Virus record (IMG/VR): IMGVR_UViG_3300023235_001725
Direction: 5' to 3' (one strand)
Source: a virus
Taxonomy: Duplodnaviria > Caudoviricetes
Length of the DNA stretch: 64,000 bases
The translations under genes and the position numbers were made by a program. Position 1 is the stretch's first letter. Every line of letters begins with the position of its first letter. Positions 2,561 through 33,087 of the stretch are shown piece by piece. A model generated the notes under the pieces. The model made no database searches, was not told the DNA's origin, and saw only the letters and a program-made list of their open reading frames with translations.

Positions 2561-4704
2561 TAAATTATTCCTTTACAGGATGAGGTGATAAACAGGGGTA
2601 TGATGTCAAACCAAGAAGTGCAAAATGTTGTGATTCCCTTACAGGATGAGATGATAAACAGGGGAGGGAGCAACTTCAAATACCTACAAGCTGTTGTGAT
2701 TCCCTTGCAGAATGAGATGATAAACAGGTCTAACGATGGAATAACCACCTTAGGCGAAGTTGTGATTCCCTTGCAGAATGAGATGATAAACAGGTTTAAA
2801 AGTTGAATGCGCCCCGTGCATCCCGTTGTGATTCCCTTGCAGAATGAGATGATAAACAGGTGAGCATTATTCTCTAAACAAAATTTATCTCGAATAAATT
2901 TCAGCCTATTTCAGATTAAACAACAACAATGGAAAATGAAATCGACCGTCTAAATTATCTTTTAACAGCTGTAAACACAGAGAACACATTGAAAGGGCTT
3001 GCACTTGCTGAAATCACCAAAATCTGCTGTCAAAAGTCAAAGAATTTCAGAGATATAAAGCAAATCGAAGACATCCTTCTTAAACTAAAAAATAATCAGC
3101 AGAAATTCCGTTTTAAACAGGAGATAAAATATTTCAAACAGATGGCAGGTAGTTGTGATTCCCTTGCAGAATGAGATGATAAACAGGCGGATTACGATTA
3201 GCCACAGCACCCAACAGTTGTGATTCCCTTGCAGAATGAGATGATAAACAGGCACAGCCAAATAAAGAATTACCAAGATGGTGTTGTGATTCCCTTGCAG
3301 AATGAGATGATAAACAGGTACCAAAACAGAAACATATTTGCTTGCCATGTTGTGATTCCCTTGCAGAATGAGATGATAAACAGGAGGGAATTGATACATC
3401 AGAAAGCCTTTATGTTGTGATTCCCTTGCAGAATGAGATGATAAACAGGGGCAATCGCCTTGAATAATTTTGCTGTTCAGTTGTGATTCCCTTGCAGAAT
3501 GAGATGATAAACAGGAGACTATAATGAATACCGATTTGAGGAAGAGTTGTGATTCCCTTGCAGAATGAGATGATAAACAAGGCAAAGGTCGGGAGCTTGC
3601 AAGCAGATATAGTTGTGATTCCCTTGCAGAATGAGATGATAAACAGGACAAAGGATAAGAAGGGCGTGTAGCTATTAGTTGTGATTCCCTTGCAGAATGA
3701 GATGATAAACAGGCAAAGCAACATCGAATGGAAGCAAGAGAGTAGTTGTGATTCCCTTGCAGAATGAGATGATAAACAGGTTCACCTTCGTTTCGAGGTG
3801 GTTTTTGTCTGTTGTGATTCCCTTGCAGAATGAGATGATAAACAGGGAAGCTTTTGGAACTAATTCCGCTAATCGAGTTGTGATTCCCTTGCAGAATGAG
3901 ATGATAAACAGGGGAATCGAATTCCTTTAGTACGTTCCTTTTGTTGTGATTCCCTTGCAGAATGAGATGATAAACAGGTAGATTAAATCTTAGTCTTCAA
4001 GACCAATCGTTGTGATTCCCTTGCAGAATGAGATGATAAACAGGGACGGTATGCATTCAAAATATCATTGCGCTGTTGTGATTCCCTTGCAGAATGAGAT
4101 GATAAACAGGTAGATTAAATCTTAGTCTTCAAGACCAATCGTTGTGATTCCCTTGCAGAATGAGATGATAAACAGGGACGGTATGCATTCAAAATATCAT
4201 TACGCTGTTGTGATTCCCTTGCAGAATGAGATGATAAACAGGCTACTTCAACTTGACCCAAAAAGACATACAGTTGTGATTCCCTTGCAGAATGAGATGA
4301 TAAACAGGTGCAGTCCAATTCATGATAAACGCATTAAAGTTGTGATTCCCTTGCAGAATGAGATGATAAACAGGTCAATTTCATGTTGGGTGCTGTGACT
4401 AAAGGTTGTGATTCCCTTGCAGAATGAGATGATAAACAGGTTTATTTAAACAATGCAAAAAACAAACCAAGTTGTGATTCCCTTGCAGAATGAGATGATA
4501 AACAGGTGGACCACTCAACCCAAATAACCCGCGCATGTTGTGATTCCCTTGCAGAATGAGATGATAAACAGGTGCACAAAGCTTTAATTATCAAAGGTTC
4601 ACGTTGTGATTCCCTTGCAGAATGAGATGATAAACAGGTGTTTGAAGTTGGCGAACTTGATTCTAAGAGTTGTGATTCCCTTGCAGAATGAGATGATAAA
4701 CAGG
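2561..4704 (-). CRISPR. CRISPR array: 29 repeats of 36 nt (plus strand GTTGTGATTCCCTTGCAGAATGAGATGATAAACAGG), 27 spacers of 29-31 nt and one 291-nt interruption
   Basis: Repeats counted by hand from 2561 (degenerate) to 4669-4704. Variants at 2627 and 3546. The leftmost repeat has lost only its minus-strand 3' end, which suggests minus-strand transcription co-directional with the cas genes. Confidence 0.98.
2929..3174 (+). CDS. 81-aa ORF inside the CRISPR array, antisense to it, ending at a TGA in repeat 6
   Basis: ORF track; A-rich start context (attaaacaacaacaATG); no family recognised. Confidence 0.4.
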   Translation: MENEIDRLNYLLTAVNTENTLKGLALAEITKICCQKSKNFRDIKQIEDILLKLKNNQQKFRFKQEIKYFKQMAGSCDSLAE

Positions 4705-22502: not shown

Positions 22503-22593
22503 TGGTGAACGGAATAGGAATCGAACCTACAACTTTTCTTATGGCCGCTAAGCCATCTAGTTTTGCGCCTTCCATCCTTTTAAGTACTCGTTC
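22503..22593 (-). ncRNA. tRNA-like RNA with an aberrant anticodon region; encoded CCA
   Basis: Acceptor GAACGAG/TCCGTTC-ACCA and T arm GTAGG-TTCGATT-CCTAT. The middle (ATGGC-TTAGCG-GCCAT plus extra nt) does not fold as a canonical anticodon arm. Confidence 0.55.
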
Positions 22594-22634
22594 GAACATT
22601 TCCTTAAAAATCTTGGTGCAATCCGCCCATGTTG

Positions 22635-22686
22635 TGGCGTGGGGAGAAACGAATCTCACGCGAATCTTCTTTCAGATTCTCACGCC
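22635..22686 (-). ncRNA. Mini tRNA-mimic, family 1, copy a
   Basis: GGCGTG-A-GAATCT/AGATTC-GC-GTGAGA-TTCGTT-TCTCCC-CACGCC-A. Confidence 0.7.
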
Positions 22687-22746
22687 ATGTGGGGGAAGTT
22701 GTTTATGAGAACAGCGCCTCCCCAAGCATCTCACTGCTCATTATAA

Positions 22747-22913
22747 TGGTCCCGCGAGAGGGTTCTGCCCCCCATCATTTCTTCAACATCAACTACTAAC
22801 TCACTCTTGTGGCCACGCAAGTGAGTTTTTGTGTTTGCATCCCGAACTGAGTCCTTTCGGTTCGTCTTCCACATTATCAGTGTGGTGCTTTAACATATCT
22901 AAGCTATCGCAGG
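22747..22913 (-). tRNA. tRNA-Ile(GAT)-like with a ~90-nt insertion between the variable loop and T arm
   Basis: Acceptor CCTGCGA/TCGCGGG-ACCA; CCACA-CTGATAA-TGTGG; insert at about 22774-22863; non-canonical T loop GCAGAA. Confidence 0.6.
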
Positions 22914-22919
22914 AAATTG

Positions 22920-23062
22920 TCCTGGAGGAAGGGCTCGAACCCCCGACCCCCACCGTTCGATTCCAATTCTCTACTTCACAACCCTTGTGGCCACGCAGGT
23001 TGCGTTTCAATCCTTTTCCTCATTTATCAGGGTGGTGCTCTAACCAACTGAGCTACTCCAGG
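22920..23062 (-). tRNA. tRNA-Ile(GAT) with a 69-nt insertion in the anticodon loop
   Basis: CCTGGAG-TA-GCTC-AGTTGGTTA-GAGC-A-CCACC-CTGATAA-[22955-23023]-GGTGG-GGGTC-GGGGG-TTCGAGC-CCTTC-CTCCAGG-A. Confidence 0.8.
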
Positions 23063-23065
23063 AAG

Positions 23066-23111
23066 TGCCGCTAACAGGAATCTCACCTATTCTAGTGCTA
23101 ATGCAAGCGGC
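23066..23111 (-). ncRNA. Mini tRNA-mimic, family 2, copy a
   Basis: GCCGCT-TGCATTAGCACTAG-AATAGG-TGAGATT-CCTGTT-AGCGGC-A. Confidence 0.7.
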
Positions 23112-23112
23112 G

Positions 23113-23192
23113 TGGTGGTGAGGGAAGGACTTGAACCTTCGACCTCCAGGGTTTTAAAGCCTGGTGCTCTGAACCAACTGAGCTACCTCACC
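23113..23192 (-). tRNA. Short-V-loop tRNA with a 9-nt anticodon loop CTTTAAAAC (central TAA); encoded CCA
   Basis: GGTGAGG...CCAGG-CTTTAAAAC-CCTGG-AGGTC-GAAGG-TTCAAGT-CCTTC-CCTCACC-ACCA. Confidence 0.8.
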
Positions 23193-23195
23193 AAG

Positions 23196-23241
23196 AGGCC
23201 CCAGGAAGACTTTCTCTTCCTCTAGTGCTAATGCAGGGGCC
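23196..23241 (-). ncRNA. Mini tRNA-mimic, family 2, copy b
   Basis: GGCCCC-TGCATTAGCACTAG-AGGAAG-AGAAAGT-CTTCCT-GGGGCC-T. Confidence 0.7.
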
Positions 23242-23242
23242 G

Positions 23243-23296
23243 TGGTGGCGTGGGAAGAAACGAATCTCCCGCGAATCCCTAATGGACTCTCACGCC
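23243..23296 (-). ncRNA. Mini tRNA-mimic, family 1, copy b; encoded CCA
   Basis: GGCGTG-A-GAGTCC/GGATTC-GC-GGGAGA-TTCGTT-TCTTCC-CACGCC-ACCA. Confidence 0.72.
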
Positions 23297-23332
23297 TTTT
23301 TTAAATTCCAACACGTCAATGAACTTTTGTTG

Positions 23333-23406
23333 TGACAGGAGAAAGATTCGAACTCTCGTCCCCAGGTTTTTAAGGCCTGGTGCTCTAACCGCTGAGCTAT
23401 CCCGTC
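23333..23406 (-). tRNA. Short-V-loop tRNA with a 9-nt anticodon loop CCTTAAAAA (central TAA)
   Basis: GACGGGA...CCAGG-CCTTAAAAA-CCTGG-GGAC-GAGAG-TTCGAAT-CTTTC-TCCTGTC-A. Confidence 0.8.
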
Positions 23407-23455
23407 TGGTGGCGGATTCAGGACTTTAACCTGAACTGGTGCTTATGCATCCGCC
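23407..23455 (-). ncRNA. Mini tRNA-mimic, family 2, copy c; encoded CCA
   Basis: GGCGGA-TGCATAAGCACCAG-TTCAGG-TTAAAGT-CCTGAA-TCCGCC-ACCA. Confidence 0.72.
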
Positions 23456-23459
23456 GTAG

Positions 23460-23506
23460 TGGTGCGGGGACAATCGAATGTCCCATGAGCCAAAAGCTCT
23501 CGCACC
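23460..23506 (-). ncRNA. Mini tRNA-mimic, family 1, copy c
   Basis: GGTGCG-A-GAGC/GCTC-AT-GGGACA-TTCGAT-TGTCCC-CGCACC-A. Confidence 0.68.
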
Positions 23507-23527: not shown

Positions 23528-23947
23528 TCATGCGGCTTCTTTACAATTACAACTCTTGAGAGTTGGTTGATTCGTAAATTCTTTGAAAGCAAGTGGTAGA
23601 CTAGATAACCAACGGGCAGATTCTTTCCCTGGTTCTACGGTAATAGACGTGAACTGGTTGTCGAGGTCAGGCTCCTGGAAGGAACTGAAATTAATACCTT
23701 TTTGCGTGAGTTTGTCTCGGAGCTCGATGAGTTCTTGCTCGTCTTTGACTGATAAGAATCCTAAATATGGATTCGATAACCATTTTTCATAAATGGCTGT
23801 GTATTCTTGATTGAATACGTGGAATGAATGCATTCCTTGAGTTGCCTGCGCTCCAGGAGCGAGGTCTCGTCTTACGACGATGTAAAGCTTTAAGTTTTTC
23901 TTCTCTGTAGAAGGGTGTACTTACTGGTTGTCTAATGCTTTTTTCAT
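23528..23947 (-). CDS. PTH2-like peptidyl-tRNA hydrolase with an in-frame TAA at codon 9 (23921-23923)
   Basis: Frame from ATG 23947: MKKALDNQ*VHPSTEKKNLKLYIVVRRDLAPGAQATQGMHS...FQEPDLDNQFTSITVEP. The conserved KLYIVVRxDL..G..A.Q..H block lies upstream of the ORF-track Met. Confidence 0.75.
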
Positions 23948-27062: not shown

Positions 27063-28583
27063 TTATTCCTTAGTTGCAAGCTCAGCAAAATCAACATAAT
27101 TGTTGATAGTGTTGATAAGCGCTCTTTTGTCGACTTCTAGATTGTCAATGACATCAAAAATCTTTTCAGAGAATCCTCTTAGCGCGAATACGTTCTTCTC
27201 TGGGAACTGCATGCTTCCGCTTGCAGCCAAGTTGAACTCGTAAACTTTACAGTCCTGAGCACCGTACTTCTTCTTGTACGCTGCAAACTGAGTTTTTGGA
27301 GTATTGTACTCCATCCACGCTTGCATGTCCGAGAAGATGAATACACGGTCGTATTTCGCCTTCATCTTAACGAAGATGTCTTGGAAGTTCGTTCCGTGAC
27401 CAACCCTGTACTTGCCAACGTTGCCGTAGCCTTGGTTTGTATCAACAATCCAGTTTGCCATACCCATTACTGAGTCATTCACGTTAACTGGAAGGTACAT
27501 TGCGTGTGTTCCAAACGACATTACATCAGCATCACTAGCCTTGGCCATCATGGCTCCAAATAGAGCTGCCACTTTATTCCTGTAAGTTTTACCTCCAGCA
27601 ATTGGGCAATCCATAGAACCTGACAGGTCAATTACGACTGCAGTGTTTCCATCAAACTTTGGAATGTTAGAACAAGCTAGGTCTACGGCGGTGTTAAGCG
27701 CTCTTTGAACTTTCTTAGACTTTGTTCCAGTCAACACTGTAATCTCGTCGAGTGCAGTGATGTATCTGAATGGAAGAATCAGTGACTTCTTAATTCTTGC
27801 CTCTGTAGTCAACAGCTCGCATGCCTTGTTAAGAACCTCGTCAGAAGCATCTTGGATGATGTTTCTAAGGTTTCTTAGAAGAGCAAACTGTCCAATCTTA
27901 CCTGACATAACCAAGTCAGACCAAGCCTCAGCTTTGTTTGCGGCTTTCTCCTCAGAGGTCTTCGCTCCCTGGCCAGCTGCGGACAGCTTAGACTCGAAAG
28001 TGTTTTCACTCTTTAGGGTTCCAGCAACAAGCTCGGCAAGTGCCTTCTCGTTTCTAGCCGTTCCTTTTGGACGAACCAAGTTTACAACGTCAACAAGCGA
28101 TACTTCATTCTTGTCTCCTCTGTACTTGGCAAGCTGGTATGCATCGAACTTTCCGAAAGCTTTCTTGAAACCTTTCTTTAGCGCGTTTGGCAAAGATGCT
28201 TTCTTACCCTCTCTACCGAAGTAGTAGGACATAATCTCAGTCATGTCGTCTGGACGACGTACAATAGCTGCGTAAAACTCTTTAGCCCAGGCCTTACCTG
28301 AGGCGTGCTTAGCGATTTCACCCGCAAGTACGTGGGTGATAGAACGCATTCCAAACTCGTTACGGGCATAGACAGCCGCCTTTGCTGCGAACTCTGGGTC
28401 CACTTTGCTAAGAACGGATGTCAACTCCTTTATTTGGTCTCCTGCCTTCGAATAGAAGTCATCAGACACAAACGAGTTCAACAGAATCGTCACAAGCTCT
28501 AACTCTGGAGTCGACTTATAAGCCTCTCCTCCCGCTTTGTTGGTAGTCATTTCTACCTTTGATTTTTCGTTAAATTTTGACAT
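27063..28583 (-). CDS. Ro60-related TROVE-domain RNA-binding protein with C-terminal vWA domain
   Basis: NKAGGEAY, AKAAVYARNEFGMRS, ALLRNLRN, LPFRY and VVIDLSGSM motifs; start moved to MSKFN. Confidence 0.92.
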   Translation of the reverse strand: MSKFNEKSKVEMTTNKAGGEAYKSTPELELVTILLNSFVSDDFYSKAGDQIKELTSVLSKVDPEFAAKAAVYARNEFGMRSITHVLAGEIAKHASGKAWAKEFYAAIVRRPDDMTEIMSYYFGREGKKASLPNALKKGFKKAFGKFDAYQLAKYRGDKNEVSLVDVVNLVRPKGTARNEKALAELVAGTLKSENTFESKLSAAGQGAKTSEEKAANKAEAWSDLVMSGKIGQFALLRNLRNIIQDASDEVLNKACELLTTEARIKKSLILPFRYITALDEITVLTGTKSKKVQRALNTAVDLACSNIPKFDGNTAVVIDLSGSMDCPIAGGKTYRNKVAALFGAMMAKASDADVMSFGTHAMYLPVNVNDSVMGMANWIVDTNQGYGNVGKYRVGHGTNFQDIFVKMKAKYDRVFIFSDMQAWMEYNTPKTQFAAYKKKYGAQDCKVYEFNLAASGSMQFPEKNVFALRGFSEKIFDVIDNLEVDKRALINTINNYVDFAELATKE

Positions 28584-28686
28584 CTCGTCGTTGTTTATAA
28601 TTGTTGTTATTCTATTAATTCTTTGTTTTTGGCGCATAAAAAAAAAGCACCACATCTTTGCAGAGGGTGCTTTTTCGAAAAATATA

Positions 28687-29659: not shown

Positions 29660-30520
29660 ATGTTCGAAGATACTAATCTACACTTGTTTTTAGCAGCAAC
29701 TGTCCCAGCGTTAAGTTATTTGGGTTTTATCTACTTTTTTGGTCGAAAACTAATCAACTGGAAATCATCTATCATATATCTCCTTTTCGGATTTGTGTCC
29801 ATTTTTTTTGTAGAAATGATTCAGTTTATTTTCCCACATATTCAAGACTTAATGTTCGTGAATAAAGATTTGGTGGAGATTGATTTTAATACAATGCAAG
29901 TAAACTACTCTCCTACCGTGTGGAGTTGGGTGTGTTTAGCTTTCATTCAAATTGCTTTGCTAGAAGAAATTATTAAGGGGGCAGCTTTTAAACTTACTTC
30001 ACTGCCTAGACGTCACAAGCTACGGAAAGAGAAGGACTCTTTGTTCGCAATCATGTTTTATAGTTGTTGCGTGGCTGTGGGGTTTGCAATTTTTGAAAAT
30101 GTTACCTATGCCATGAGATTCCTTCCTGCTCAAGGAGATGTTGCTACTCAATATTTAATGTCTCAACGTAGTATTTTTTCAGTCACCTCACACATGATAG
30201 CAGGATTAATTATGGGCTATGGTTTTGCTGTAGGTAGCATTAAGTCTGGGTTTAGGAAGATTCTCTATCCCTTAATTGGTTTTTTTGGAGGAATGATGTA
30301 TCACGGGACTTTTGACTACTTACTAATAACTGCCGATAGCCACGAGTCGTTTGAACTGTTTAAAGGATACTTTATCCATCTGCCAACAACAATGTTGATG
30401 GTTATGAGTCTGGTGTTTACATTTCTATTGGGGTCGCATCTTCGCTCTTACTCGTTGCGGTATAATAGAGTTCATCGAAAACGAAAACTATCAACTCTAA
30501 AAATGAAAAGCTCTGATTAA
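29660..30520 (+). CDS. prsW: PrsW-family intramembrane metalloprotease
   Basis: Multi-TM; ALLEEIIKG, GFAIFEN, SHMIAG and HGTFD motifs. Confidence 0.85.
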   Translation: MFEDTNLHLFLAATVPALSYLGFIYFFGRKLINWKSSIIYLLFGFVSIFFVEMIQFIFPHIQDLMFVNKDLVEIDFNTMQVNYSPTVWSWVCLAFIQIALLEEIIKGAAFKLTSLPRRHKLRKEKDSLFAIMFYSCCVAVGFAIFENVTYAMRFLPAQGDVATQYLMSQRSIFSVTSHMIAGLIMGYGFAVGSIKSGFRKILYPLIGFFGGMMYHGTFDYLLITADSHESFELFKGYFIHLPTTMLMVMSLVFTFLLGSHLRSYSLRYNRVHRKRKLSTLKMKSSD

Positions 30521-30956
30521 GGTCTGAAAGAATAATGACACCGTCGTGGTTCTTTATAGAAAAGCGCGTGTTTATATCTAAGGTTAAGTCTCGAAACATC
30601 TTTCTAGGCTCTTCTCCTTCTTTGAGGGTGAAGTCTGCAAAAAAAGGATTTATTACTTCATTTTCGTGAGATACAACTATTTCTCTCCTGACTGTGATAT
30701 TAGAAACATCTTGAAAAAAAGACATATCCATAGCGGAGTAAACGGTGTTCACCACATAGTAATCCTCGCAAGTATAATTTTCAATAAAGTCCTTTATGTG
30801 AAACATTAAGTTCATTATCTCCGCTACAGTCACTCCTGGGTCGATAAATGTTTTCTCTGATAGATTTGCCAGTAAAAAGCTGGGTAGCTCATCGCCACCC
30901 AGCTTTACTGTCTGCCCGTCAAACTCTAGTACGTTATTCGGCTTTATTTTTAGCAT
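30417..30956 (-). CDS. Hypothetical protein; 104-bp convergent overlap with prsW
   Basis: ORF coupled to the Clp ATPase gene. Confidence 0.6.
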   Translation of the reverse strand: MLKIKPNNVLEFDGQTVKLGGDELPSFLLANLSEKTFIDPGVTVAEIMNLMFHIKDFIENYTCEDYYVVNTVYSAMDMSFFQDVSNITVRREIVVSHENEVINPFFADFTLKEGEEPRKMFRDLTLDINTRFSIKNHDGVIILSDLNQSFSFLELIVFVFDELYYTATSKSEDATPIEM

Positions 30957-32979
30957 TCGTATTTCTTTTTTGGATAAACACCTTTTTATCTTTCTCTCTA
31001 TAAGAGAAGGTTATTGAGGCTCCTTCTTTTATTTCGCCCTTGAGGACAGCTTGCGCAAAAGTGTTCTCCAAATGTGATGTTATAGCTCTTTTAAGGGGTC
31101 TTGCTCCAAACTTCTTATCATAACCTACGTCTGCTATGAAATCTTTCACACTGTCTGACACTTTAACCTTATAACCTCTTTGTTCAATTCTGCTTATAAC
31201 AACTTGTAGTTCCAAGCTAACAATGTCCATTATCTCGTCCTTTGTAAGTGGCATGAAGATTATTTTCTCGTCAATGCGGTTGATTAGCTCTGGTCTGAAA
31301 AAATTTCCAAGCTCTCCCATGATAAGTTTCTCAATATCTTCTTGCTCTGTTTCTTTTGCAGCAAATCCAAGTGATTTATTCTTAAACAGCTTATCAGTTC
31401 CAATATTTGATGTCATAATGATGACAGTGTTTTTAAAGTTAATCTCTTGCCCATGATTATCCGTCAGTTTGCCTTCGTCAAAAATTTGAAGCATAATATT
31501 GAATACGTCTGGATGCGCTTTCTCTATTTCATCAAACAATAGTATGGAGTAAGGTTGGTTCTTAATTTTTTCAGTCAACAAACCCTTGTCTTCATGGCCA
31601 ATGTAACCAGGGGGAGACCCAATCAACTTAGCGACCGATATCTTCTCCATGTATTCACTCATATCAAACCTAATGAAAGACTCTGGGAGGTCAAACATGT
31701 ACTCAGCTAGCATTTTGCTTAAGTATGTCTTACCTACTCCTGTTGAACCTAAAAACAATAAAGATGCAATTGGTTTGTTTGGGTCCTGTATGCCTACGCG
31801 AGACCTTTGGACTGCCTCACAAATTTTTTCAATAGCTACTTTCTGTCCGATGACTCTATCTGAAAGGTATGTTTGCATTTTCAAGAGCTTATTGCTTTCA
31901 TTATCTGTAAGCTTAGACACAGGTATACCTGTGTGGGATGCGATGATTGCTGCTACGTCTTTTTTTGTGATAGGTTGTTTGTCATCTTTTAAGGACTGCT
32001 TCCATTTTTCAGTCATATTCTGGATGTTCTGCTTAGTGCTTCGCTCTTTATCGCGAAGTTTTGCTGCGACTTCATATTGCTGCTTCGCTACGGCTTTTTT
32101 CTTATCTTGTTCAATCTCTTGAAGACCTTCTTCGGCATCTTTTAGGTCTTTAGGTATTTCTCTAAATCCAAGCTTTGCTTTTGAGCCGACTTCATCTAAG
32201 ACATCTATTGCTTTATCTGGGAAATTCCTGTAGTTAATATATCTATCTGACAGCTCAACTATAAATTCTAATGTTTCGTCTGAAAATGATACGCCGTGAT
32301 AATCTTCATAGCGTTCCTTTATTTGTTTTAGAATTTCAACCGTCTGCTTCGCAGTTGGAACCGACAGCATGACTTTCTGAAATCTTCTATCAAGCGCTGA
32401 GTCATTAGCAATTGTTTTTTTGTGTTCCTCTAAAGTTGTTGCTCCAATAACACGCATTGTACCACGAGCTAGCTCTGGTTTAATGATTTGAGATGCATCC
32501 ATTGAACCAGATGCACCACCAGCTCCCATGAGATTGTGAATTTCATCAATAAATATGATAACATCGTCATTTTTTACTGCTTCGTCAATAATAGCCTTCA
32601 TTCGCTCTTCGAACTGGCCACGGTACTTTGTTCCTCCGACCAAGGAGGACAAATTTAATTCAATAATTCTTTTATTGAGTAACCATCTATCAGTTTTGCG
32701 ATTTACGATTCGCAAAGCCAGCCCTTCGACTAATGCTGTTTTTCCTGTTCCAGCCTCTCCTACGATTATGGGGTTATTCTTCTTTCTTTTGTTGAGAATT
32801 TGGACCATCATGTCGATTTCTTCTTCTCGCCCTATTACAGGGTCGAGTTCTCCTTTTGCTGCTAGCAGCGTTAGGTCTCTACCAAAATGTTCTAATACCT
32901 GCGTGGAACCCTCTGTGAAAGAAGGGCCCATCCCTTTTTCATCGTCATCAGGGTCTTGAGAAAATGCTCGTCCTGCCAT
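30934..32979 (-). CDS. clpC: ClpC/ClpB-family AAA+ chaperone lacking the N-terminal Clp-repeat domain
   Basis: LDPVIGR, GEAGTGKT, KYRGQFEER, DEIH, UVR coil, GSTGVGKT, DEIEKAHPDV and GARPLKR. Confidence 0.9.
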   Translation of the reverse strand: MAGRAFSQDPDDDEKGMGPSFTEGSTQVLEHFGRDLTLLAAKGELDPVIGREEEIDMMVQILNKRKKNNPIIVGEAGTGKTALVEGLALRIVNRKTDRWLLNKRIIELNLSSLVGGTKYRGQFEERMKAIIDEAVKNDDVIIFIDEIHNLMGAGGASGSMDASQIIKPELARGTMRVIGATTLEEHKKTIANDSALDRRFQKVMLSVPTAKQTVEILKQIKERYEDYHGVSFSDETLEFIVELSDRYINYRNFPDKAIDVLDEVGSKAKLGFREIPKDLKDAEEGLQEIEQDKKKAVAKQQYEVAAKLRDKERSTKQNIQNMTEKWKQSLKDDKQPITKKDVAAIIASHTGIPVSKLTDNESNKLLKMQTYLSDRVIGQKVAIEKICEAVQRSRVGIQDPNKPIASLLFLGSTGVGKTYLSKMLAEYMFDLPESFIRFDMSEYMEKISVAKLIGSPPGYIGHEDKGLLTEKIKNQPYSILLFDEIEKAHPDVFNIMLQIFDEGKLTDNHGQEINFKNTVIIMTSNIGTDKLFKNKSLGFAAKETEQEDIEKLIMGELGNFFRPELINRIDEKIIFMPLTKDEIMDIVSLELQVVISRIEQRGYKVKVSDSVKDFIADVGYDKKFGARPLKRAITSHLENTFAQAVLKGEIKEGASITFSYREKDKKVFIQKRNTNAKNKAE

Positions 32980-33087
32980 TTTTTTATGTCTATTGTTATA
33001 TTGTAGTACAACAATAGACATAAAATGGGACAAATTCAAATTTATTCATGATGCCCACAAATCGTTTTTACGTTTGTGGGTAGTTCA

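Follow-up and report, generated by a model that had tools for sequence, protein, structure and literature searches.

The tRNA-like domain of tmRNA consists of an acceptor stem, a T arm, and a reduced D region, and lacks an anticodon arm; it carries the G3·U70 alanine identity and a canonical T loop, and it is part of a 350-nt RNA that also holds an mRNA-like module. The eukaryotic mascRNA and menRNA (RF01684) are non-decoding tRNA-like small RNAs of about 60 nt, which RNase P and RNase Z release from a longer transcript and which form a full cloverleaf with an anticodon-like arm. In plant mitochondria, t-elements are located at the ends of mRNAs and keep the GGTTCRANYCC motif of the T arm; they are expected to be cut by RNase P and RNase Z, and non-encoded C or A may be present at the resulting 3′-ends (PMC1920247). 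Bacterial Y RNAs contain tRNA-like modules and, as a rule of thumb, are encoded within about 4 kb of the Ro60 gene on the same strand, and the Ro60-binding motif of YrlA, GNCGAA(N)G, lies in a terminal stem (PMC4201824). A phage Ro60 binds locally encoded Y-like RNAs, with Yrl1 and Yrl2 of phage phiLo as examples (PMC12135203). Finally, in tRNAs of the 8/4 or 9/3 type, the 12-bp branch formed by the acceptor and T stems is kept while the split between the two stems varies (PMC5389517).

The window analyzed here, i.e., the whole stretch of 64,000 nt, belongs to a giant uncultured salt-lake phage; the longest recorded contig bearing its Pth2-like gene is 446,956 bp. On the minus strand, from the Pth2-like gene to a small methyltransferase gene (22480-22091), extends an array of about 13 RNA units with no ORF of note between them (Table 1). 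The spacers are mostly 0-8 nt, the exceptions being one conserved spacer of 35 nt and one structured stretch of 68 nt. The first half of the array comprises, in order, F1-a, copy C, tRNA X1, the 35-nt spacer, F1-b, copy B, and tRNA X2, and the second half comprises copy A, an insert-bearing tRNA-Ile, a second insert-bearing tRNA-Ile-like gene, a structured element, F1-c, and a 126-nt tRNA-ended RNA. Copies A, B, and C, here designated F2, are each flanked by other RNA units, and none abuts an ORF. The operon is otherwise translation-related, containing the Pth2-like gene, an ochre suppressor tRNA, the odd tRNAs, and Ro60. Judged from the sequence, the three F2 elements form a set of paralogous genes, and their RNAs, of about 46 nt, are tRNA descendants minus the anticodon arm.

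Table 1. Features of the RNA array and related loci (positions refer to the window unless a contig is named).
Feature	Position	Strand	Remarks
F2 copy A	23111->23066	minus	discriminator A at 23066, followed by CUUCC and then tRNA-Ile
F2 copy A, stems	P1 23111-23106 x 23072-23067; P3 23091-23086 x 23078-23073	minus	
F2 copy A, other parts	P2 hairpin 23105-23096; junction CUAG 23095-23092; 7-nt loop 23085-23079	minus	
F2 copy B	23241->23196	minus	layout as in copy A; discriminator U, followed by CUU and then tRNA X2
F2 copy C	23455->23410, plus encoded CCA 23409-23407	minus	tRNA X1 begins at the next base
F1-a sister mini-tRNA	23461..23506	minus	directly upstream of copy C; 6-bp acceptor stem, variable hairpin, 6-bp T-like hairpin
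tRNA X1	23332..23406	minus	9-nt anticodon loop; directly downstream of copy C
F1-b mini-tRNA	23246..23296	minus	directly upstream of copy B
tRNA X2	23116..23192	minus	9-nt anticodon loop, encoded CCA; between copies B and A
tRNA-Ile(GAU) with insert of about 70 nt	22920..23062	minus	directly downstream of copy A
Pth2-like gene	23528..23833	minus	heads the array; its relatives were used to find orthologous and distant arrays
Ro60-like gene (TROVE + vWA_Ro60)	27063..28655	minus	3.6 kb upstream of copy C
Amber-suppressor-type tRNAs near distant Pth2-like genes	L079 3834-3907, L081 3505-3578, L084 3577-3648		

An initial annotation had proposed three 46-nt elements of one geometry at this locus, and all three were found on the minus strand, each with segments of 6+14+6+7+6+6+1 nt. 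Both stems pair fully as it had stated, the single U·G pair being located in copy A, and the 7-nt loops, which were said to keep the equivalents of A58 and U60, have an invariant A, A, and U at positions 3, 5, and 7. The encoded ACCA that had been ascribed to one copy belongs to copy C, which is the only one of the three with an encoded CCA; the start of 23407 given for this copy in the initial annotation is explained by the CCA triplet at its end. The ACCA of copy C and the G that follows it are kept in six of six relatives, and an encoded CCA is absent from most tRNAs of the window.

The F2 fold is a three-way junction, which single-sequence folding yields for copies B and C. The acceptor-like P1 has 6 bp, and P3, which has 6 bp and the 7-nt loop, is fused directly to the 3′-strand of P1. 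P2 is a 3-bp UGC/GCA helix with the loop AUUA or AUAA (AUNA), and a 4-nt junction, CUAG or CCAG (CNAG), stands where the variable region of a tRNA would be. The near-invariant 14-nt linker described in the initial annotation is therefore present but is not single-stranded, being a shrunken D-arm-like hairpin followed by a junction; its core, TGCATWAGCACYAG, is found at exactly three places in the window, although beyond the closest relatives the stem part varies in a covarying manner. Fold energies are better for the minus strand than for the plus strand, and the G·U pairs of F2 would become C·A mismatches on the opposite strand. Within a 451-nt stretch of the presumed precursor, the RNA units fold as separate domains. 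It may be speculated from the modeled fold that a miniature elbow forms, in which the U of the small loop would pair with the A at position 3 of the P3 loop and the A of the small loop would stack before the A at position 5.

Other interpretations of this fold were considered and rejected. A hammerhead or other small ribozyme was ruled out because the junction strands are 0, 4, and 0 nt and a catalytic core is absent. P3 was rejected as an anticodon arm: most copies lack U at position 33, and the “anticodon” triplet switches between AAA and AGA in close orthologs. Pairing of the core with another RNA was also rejected, because the window has no good complement and the core stem covaries instead of staying fixed.

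Via the Pth2-like protein, orthologous arrays were reached in another five distinct contigs, where this protein is 65-82% identical. All five contain copy C, and copies B and A occur together in L050, L051/L052, and L054/L055. The block consisting of copy B, tRNA X2, and copy A is missing from L048/L049, and in L053 the block of copy B and tRNA X2 is missing and copy A gives way to a plain hairpin, so that some relatives can dispense with copies B and A. Across the 13 distinct copies from the six contigs, 99.5% of the pair cells are paired and both sides change in 11 of the 15 pairs, and the covariation score is 0.681, with shuffles giving 0.195 and slid controls no more than 0.19. P2 itself changes in L054, where UGC/GCA has become CGC/GCG in copy B and CAC/GUG in copy C, and because these substitutions compensate for each other, the “linker” must hold a real helix. 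The positions that do not change are the opening G1-C pair of P1, three positions of the small loop (A, U, and the last A), the C that follows P2, the G that precedes P3, and positions 3, 5, and 7 of the P3 loop. The paralogs have no stem sequence in common, and the core is nonetheless kept. The covariation among paralogs and among orthologs from five other contigs is strong, which bears out the earlier proposal of selection on RNA structure.

The degree of sequence conservation points in the same direction. Copy C has 93-98% nucleotide identity in four relatives, compared with 79-86% for the adjacent coding sequence, and 85% in L054, compared with 73% for coding sequence; the corresponding values for copy B are 96-98% and 82%. 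The F2 copies are also more conserved at the nucleotide level than the tRNAs that flank them. These comparisons indicate that the F2 copies are under purifying selection.

The three copies stand far above what chance would produce. A structural descriptor was defined by stems of 6/6 or 7/5 bp, a linker of 8-18 nt, and a 7-nt loop; in its strict form, it matched the three copies alone in the 64-kb window (128 kb on both strands), and its output for 3.0 Mb of unrelated phage DNA was 12 hit lines, from 11 distinct places. With a covariance model built from the three window copies, the copies score 64.6-65.5 bits, and the runner-up in the window, a reverse-strand echo, scores 14 bits. No Rfam family covers the F2 copies, which gave no match to RF00005 at the gathering threshold or at E<=5, and ARAGORN did not call them; the full-size tRNAs alone were called by ARAGORN and Rfam. 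Exact scans for the core retrieved 47 stretches in IMG/VR, none with the stems, and 55 chance matches in 185,579 prokaryote species genomes, none of them structured. The Pth2-like and methyltransferase genes have no close relatives in IMG/VR, where patterns for the two cousin families described below gave chance matches or none, and the array matches known phages in its ordinary tRNAs and in nothing else. Literature searches turned up no account of phage tRNA arrays that include anticodon-less mini-tRNAs, so that the initial statement that the family is uncatalogued holds for both Rfam and the literature searched. F2 is a real family of non-decoding tRNA derivatives with strong comparative support, for which no published description was found.

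The core 14-mer also occurs in L002, L003, L005, L007, and about 20 more IMG/VR loci, many of which are unrelated viral contigs. At those loci it lies within a highly conserved string composed of RTTCGG, the 14-mer, and AGCGTGAAACAAT, without the F2 stems.

More distant lineages were reached by a profile search with the Pth2-like protein. In L076/L077, three elements of 45-46 nt with the F2 geometry are located directly after the Pth2-like gene, all with an encoded ACCA; their shared linker differs from that of F2 and consists of UUUUAAUA flanked by a swapping G-C/C-G pair, then UG. L078 and L210 contain one and two copies, respectively, of a 45-nt element with the 6/6 stack and an encoded ACCA, in which the linker has UAAGCAYCA in common with the F2 core, the T loop is a canonical UUCAAUU, and P3 has undergone compensatory changes. 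The Pth2-like loci of L074 and L079-L085 contain tRNA arrays, often with an amber-suppressor tRNA, and no mini-tRNAs; the association is therefore with certain phage tRNA arrays and not strictly with one protein. The amber-suppressor-type tRNAs (CUA) of these IMG/VR phages lie a few hundred bases downstream of the distant Pth2-like genes (Table 1), a pairing that echoes that of the Pth2-like gene and the ochre suppressor in the window. A Macro-domain gene adjoins the Pth2-like gene and an insert-bearing tRNA array in L078 (3242-3796), L210 (1269-1823), and L208 (1792-2346), and ClpB- and PrsW-like genes of this cousin lineage are syntenic with 30934-33039 and 29660-30520 of the window.

The mini tRNA mimics of the initial annotation are well accounted for by an origin from tRNA, in view of the 12-bp acceptor/T stack and the tRNA array that surrounds them. 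P1 and P3 together make 12 bp in every copy, which is the length of the acceptor/T helix of tRNA, with a split of 6/6 and not 7/5, and the T stem is joined to the 3′-strand of the acceptor stem by a 0-nt junction in 14 of 14 copies. The 8/4 and 9/3 tRNAs, by comparison, are full decoding tRNAs with D and anticodon arms (PMC5389517). The core string AGCACCAG is identical to the 3′-strand of the D stem, position 26, and the start of the 5′-strand of the anticodon stem of tRNAs X1 and X2. Sister genes in the relatives have lost the same arm. In L050 (1430-1479) and L053 (about 1488-1537), tRNA X1 is replaced by a 50-nt version without the anticodon arm, in which the acceptor stem and the T arm are retained along with a GG-looped D arm of 4 bp, and in which the D stem covaries (UGCU/AGCA in L050 and UGUU/AACA in L053); in L054 (4080-4125), tRNA X2 is replaced by a 46-nt mini form with a canonical T loop. 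The 12-bp stack and the loss of the anticodon arm from these sister genes identify the F2 elements as tRNA derivatives, and comparison of the arrays indicates that tRNA genes in this phage group are repeatedly cut down to anticodon-less forms and then maintained. That the replacements of X1 and X2 lack an anticodon and still covary suggests that the full-size odd tRNAs may also act via their top half.

The departure from tRNA is nevertheless considerable. The anticodon arm and its 7-nt loop are absent, and only 14 nt separate the acceptor and T-like stems. The P3 loops (NNARAKU) keep A58 and U60 and have A in place of C56, and the small loop AUNA is without G18 and G19; a true tRNA elbow is therefore not assured, and recognition by RNase P could be weak. 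At 46 nt, without an anticodon arm and encoded by a phage, F2 also differs from mascRNA and menRNA.

Several neighbors of the F2 copies are unusual in their own right. The F1 elements (F1-a, F1-b, and a third at 22636-22686, minus strand) follow the same 6/6 three-way-junction plan as F2 with a mirror-image pattern of conservation, the first hairpin being long and variable and the T-like loop AUUCGWUU conserved. The 126-nt RNA at the end of the array (22503-22628, minus strand) combines an acceptor stem of the tRNA type with a canonical T arm and an encoded ACCA. In its long interior lies GUUCGAACG, a near match to the GNCGAA Ro60-binding motif. L048 and L053 conserve this RNA, and L076 contains a counterpart. 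A conserved element at 22688-22755 (minus strand), apparently a further structured RNA, starts with CAUUAUAAUGAGCAGUGAGAUGCUUG and forms a long helix, which in L048 is built from two strands that differ wholly from those of the window and are still complementary. Two genes of the tRNA-Ile(GAU) type in the stretch 22747-23062 (minus strand) carry inserts, and a hairpin capped by UGCGUGGCCACAAG is common to both inserts. These are located at the anticodon loop in one gene and in the variable/T region in the other, and in L048 both kinds are present in one gene.

Without an anticodon, the F2 RNAs cannot decode, and a route for their production can be proposed from the layout of the array. A single long minus-strand precursor would run from the Pth2-like gene through the 13 RNA units to the methyltransferase gene, with transcription beginning in a promoter region upstream of the Pth2-like gene. 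The promoter is placed there because sigma-70 candidates were found only upstream of that gene and none inside the array, and because no minus-strand terminator was found inside the array. The units would probably be released by ordinary tRNA end-processing, in which RNase P would cut at the invariant G+1 and the 3′-end would be made either by the RNase P cut of the next unit or by RNase Z and CCA addition. In the case of copy C, an RNase P cut before tRNA X1 would leave a ready CCA end. We consider it fairly likely, from these sequence features, that the F2 RNAs are transcribed, processed, and stable.

The string GTTCWTTGACRT is found at 23313-23324 of the window (minus strand), at 4009-4020 in L054, at 4449-4460 in L078, and at 3044-3055 and 3386-3397 in L210, in each case 3-23 nt upstream of a mini-tRNA, in three phage lineages. 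Because the distance varies, it is not well explained as a -35 box of a sigma-70 promoter; it may serve as a promoter specific to the phage, or as a site of cleavage or binding.

The reading that we favor, although still tentatively, is that the F2 RNAs may persist as stable, non-decoding tRNA-mimic products. A first alternative, which seems unlikely, is that they are cis-acting processing elements, providing RNase P or RNase Z sites or acting as folding insulators, with the excised pieces being waste. Such a role would resemble that of plant-mitochondrial t-elements, which are the nearest described concept to F2, being likewise short tRNA-like, non-decoding folds around an acceptor stem and a T arm, and which plant mitochondria use as cutting signals (PMC1920247). 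It would fit with the location of every F2 copy 0-5 nt upstream of another tRNA-type gene and with the loss of copies B and A along with tRNA X2 in L048. However, the flanking tRNAs are already RNase P substrates, so that extra sites would be unneeded; moreover, shape alone suffices for cutting, yet AUNA, CNAG, and positions 3, 5, and 7 of the loop are held across paralogs with divergent stems, and the F2 copies are more conserved than the tRNAs they flank. The two classes also differ in that t-elements lie at mRNA ends and keep their T-arm motif (PMC1920247), whereas F2 lies inside an RNA-only array and has a degenerate T loop with A for C56, a family-specific hairpin and junction, and three paralogs.

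It is also conceivable, though distinctly less probable, that the F2 RNAs are Y-RNA-like partners of the Ro60-like ring or of the Pth2-like protein, with the conserved hairpin serving as a protein handle. The Ro60-like gene (TROVE 1.1e-25, vWA_Ro60 5.2e-08) is on the same strand and ends at 27063, the F2 copies lying 3.6-3.95 kb downstream, and a phage Ro60 is known to bind local Y-like RNAs (PMC12135203). F2 thus shares with YrlA (RF02553) and with Yrl1 and Yrl2 of phiLo both non-decoding tRNA mimicry and a same-strand position within about 4 kb of a Ro60-type gene, and some RNAs of the YrlA/Yrl type are substrates of RNase P and of the CCA-adding enzyme. A weak YrlA match, the one non-tRNA hint from Rfam, spans copy C and half of tRNA X1, with a score of 22.3 bits (E 0.44) that is far under the threshold of 69. 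By contrast with YrlA, which is about 100 nt or longer, with complete D and T arms and a stem that binds Ro60 through GNCGAA, F2 has no second module; neither a conserved CGAA or GNCGAA motif nor a bulged terminal stem is present in its 14 copies. The cousin loci L076, L078, and L210 are without a Ro60 gene in the sequence covered, two phages with a 44-48% identical Ro60 are without such an element, and, with regard to a Pth2 partner, several Pth2-like loci have tRNA arrays without mini-tRNAs. The 126-nt RNA at 22503-22628 fits better and is, on its sequence features, a candidate Y RNA for the Ro60-like gene in preference to the 46-mers.

A third and improbable reading is that the F2 RNAs are mini-tRNAs chargeable via acceptor-stem identity, which would serve outside normal decoding, e.g., by donating amino acids or by working with the Pth2-like hydrolase to rescue stalled ribosomes. 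Several synthetases are able to charge minihelices, the encoded CCA of copy C is conserved, the three distinct acceptor stems are each kept among orthologs, and the operon is otherwise translational (the Pth2-like gene, the ochre suppressor, and the odd tRNAs). However, the stems carry no known acceptor-only identity set and no G-1, and position 3:70 is C-G (U-A in one ortholog) and not the G3·U70 of tmRNA; ARAGORN found no tmRNA in the window. Furthermore, copy C alone of the three has an encoded CCA, and a dedicated synthetase or transferase was not seen among the ORFs scanned. The least probable reading, that of decaying tRNA pseudogenes or DNA-level hairpins (e.g., recombination sites) with no RNA function, draws on the fast rearrangement of phage tRNA arrays and on the hairpin-based cassette sites elsewhere in this genome, and is disfavored by conservation above that of the neighboring coding sequence, by compensatory changes in 11 of 15 pairs within a geometry fixed at 46 nt, and by G·U pairs that work on the minus-strand RNA only, the reverse strand scoring 10-16 bits as opposed to 43-65 bits.

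The inability of the F2 RNAs to decode, the presence of several copies per transcript, and the conservation of single-stranded positions while the stems are free to vary all point to end products with a sequence-specific interaction and not to simple cutting signals; the AUNA hairpin and the CNAG junction would form a putative recognition handle. The close packing of 13 RNA units between two ORFs and the lack of a minus-strand terminator within them likewise favor products over punctuation of mRNA. From the context and the exclusion of decoding, our preference, a tentative one, is that these RNAs may serve as a decoy or sponge for a protein that recognizes the tRNA acceptor, T arm, or CCA end during infection. 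A more doubtful extension of this idea is that the three F2 RNAs, the three sister F1 RNAs, and the shrunken odd tRNAs of the relatives make up a battery of trans-acting decoys against host factors that attack or sense the acceptor/CCA end. Such a battery, if real, would be an RNA-based counter-defense beside the phage-encoded replacement tRNAs, with the AUNA hairpin as a bait-specific handle.

The usual explanation of phage tRNA arrays is that they assist codon usage or supply substitutes for tRNAs that host defenses have cut, yet the most conserved members of this array cannot decode. In addition, the relatives trim full-size tRNAs to anticodon-less forms that are kept under selection, so that something during infection appears to require the top half of a tRNA alone. 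If the F2 elements prove to be processing aids only, they would be a modest addition to what is known of tRNA-like punctuation. If they are stable products, they would lengthen the short list of non-decoding tRNA mimics by a new family, and each would offer a compact, mutable 46-nt handle for finding the host or phage protein that it engages.
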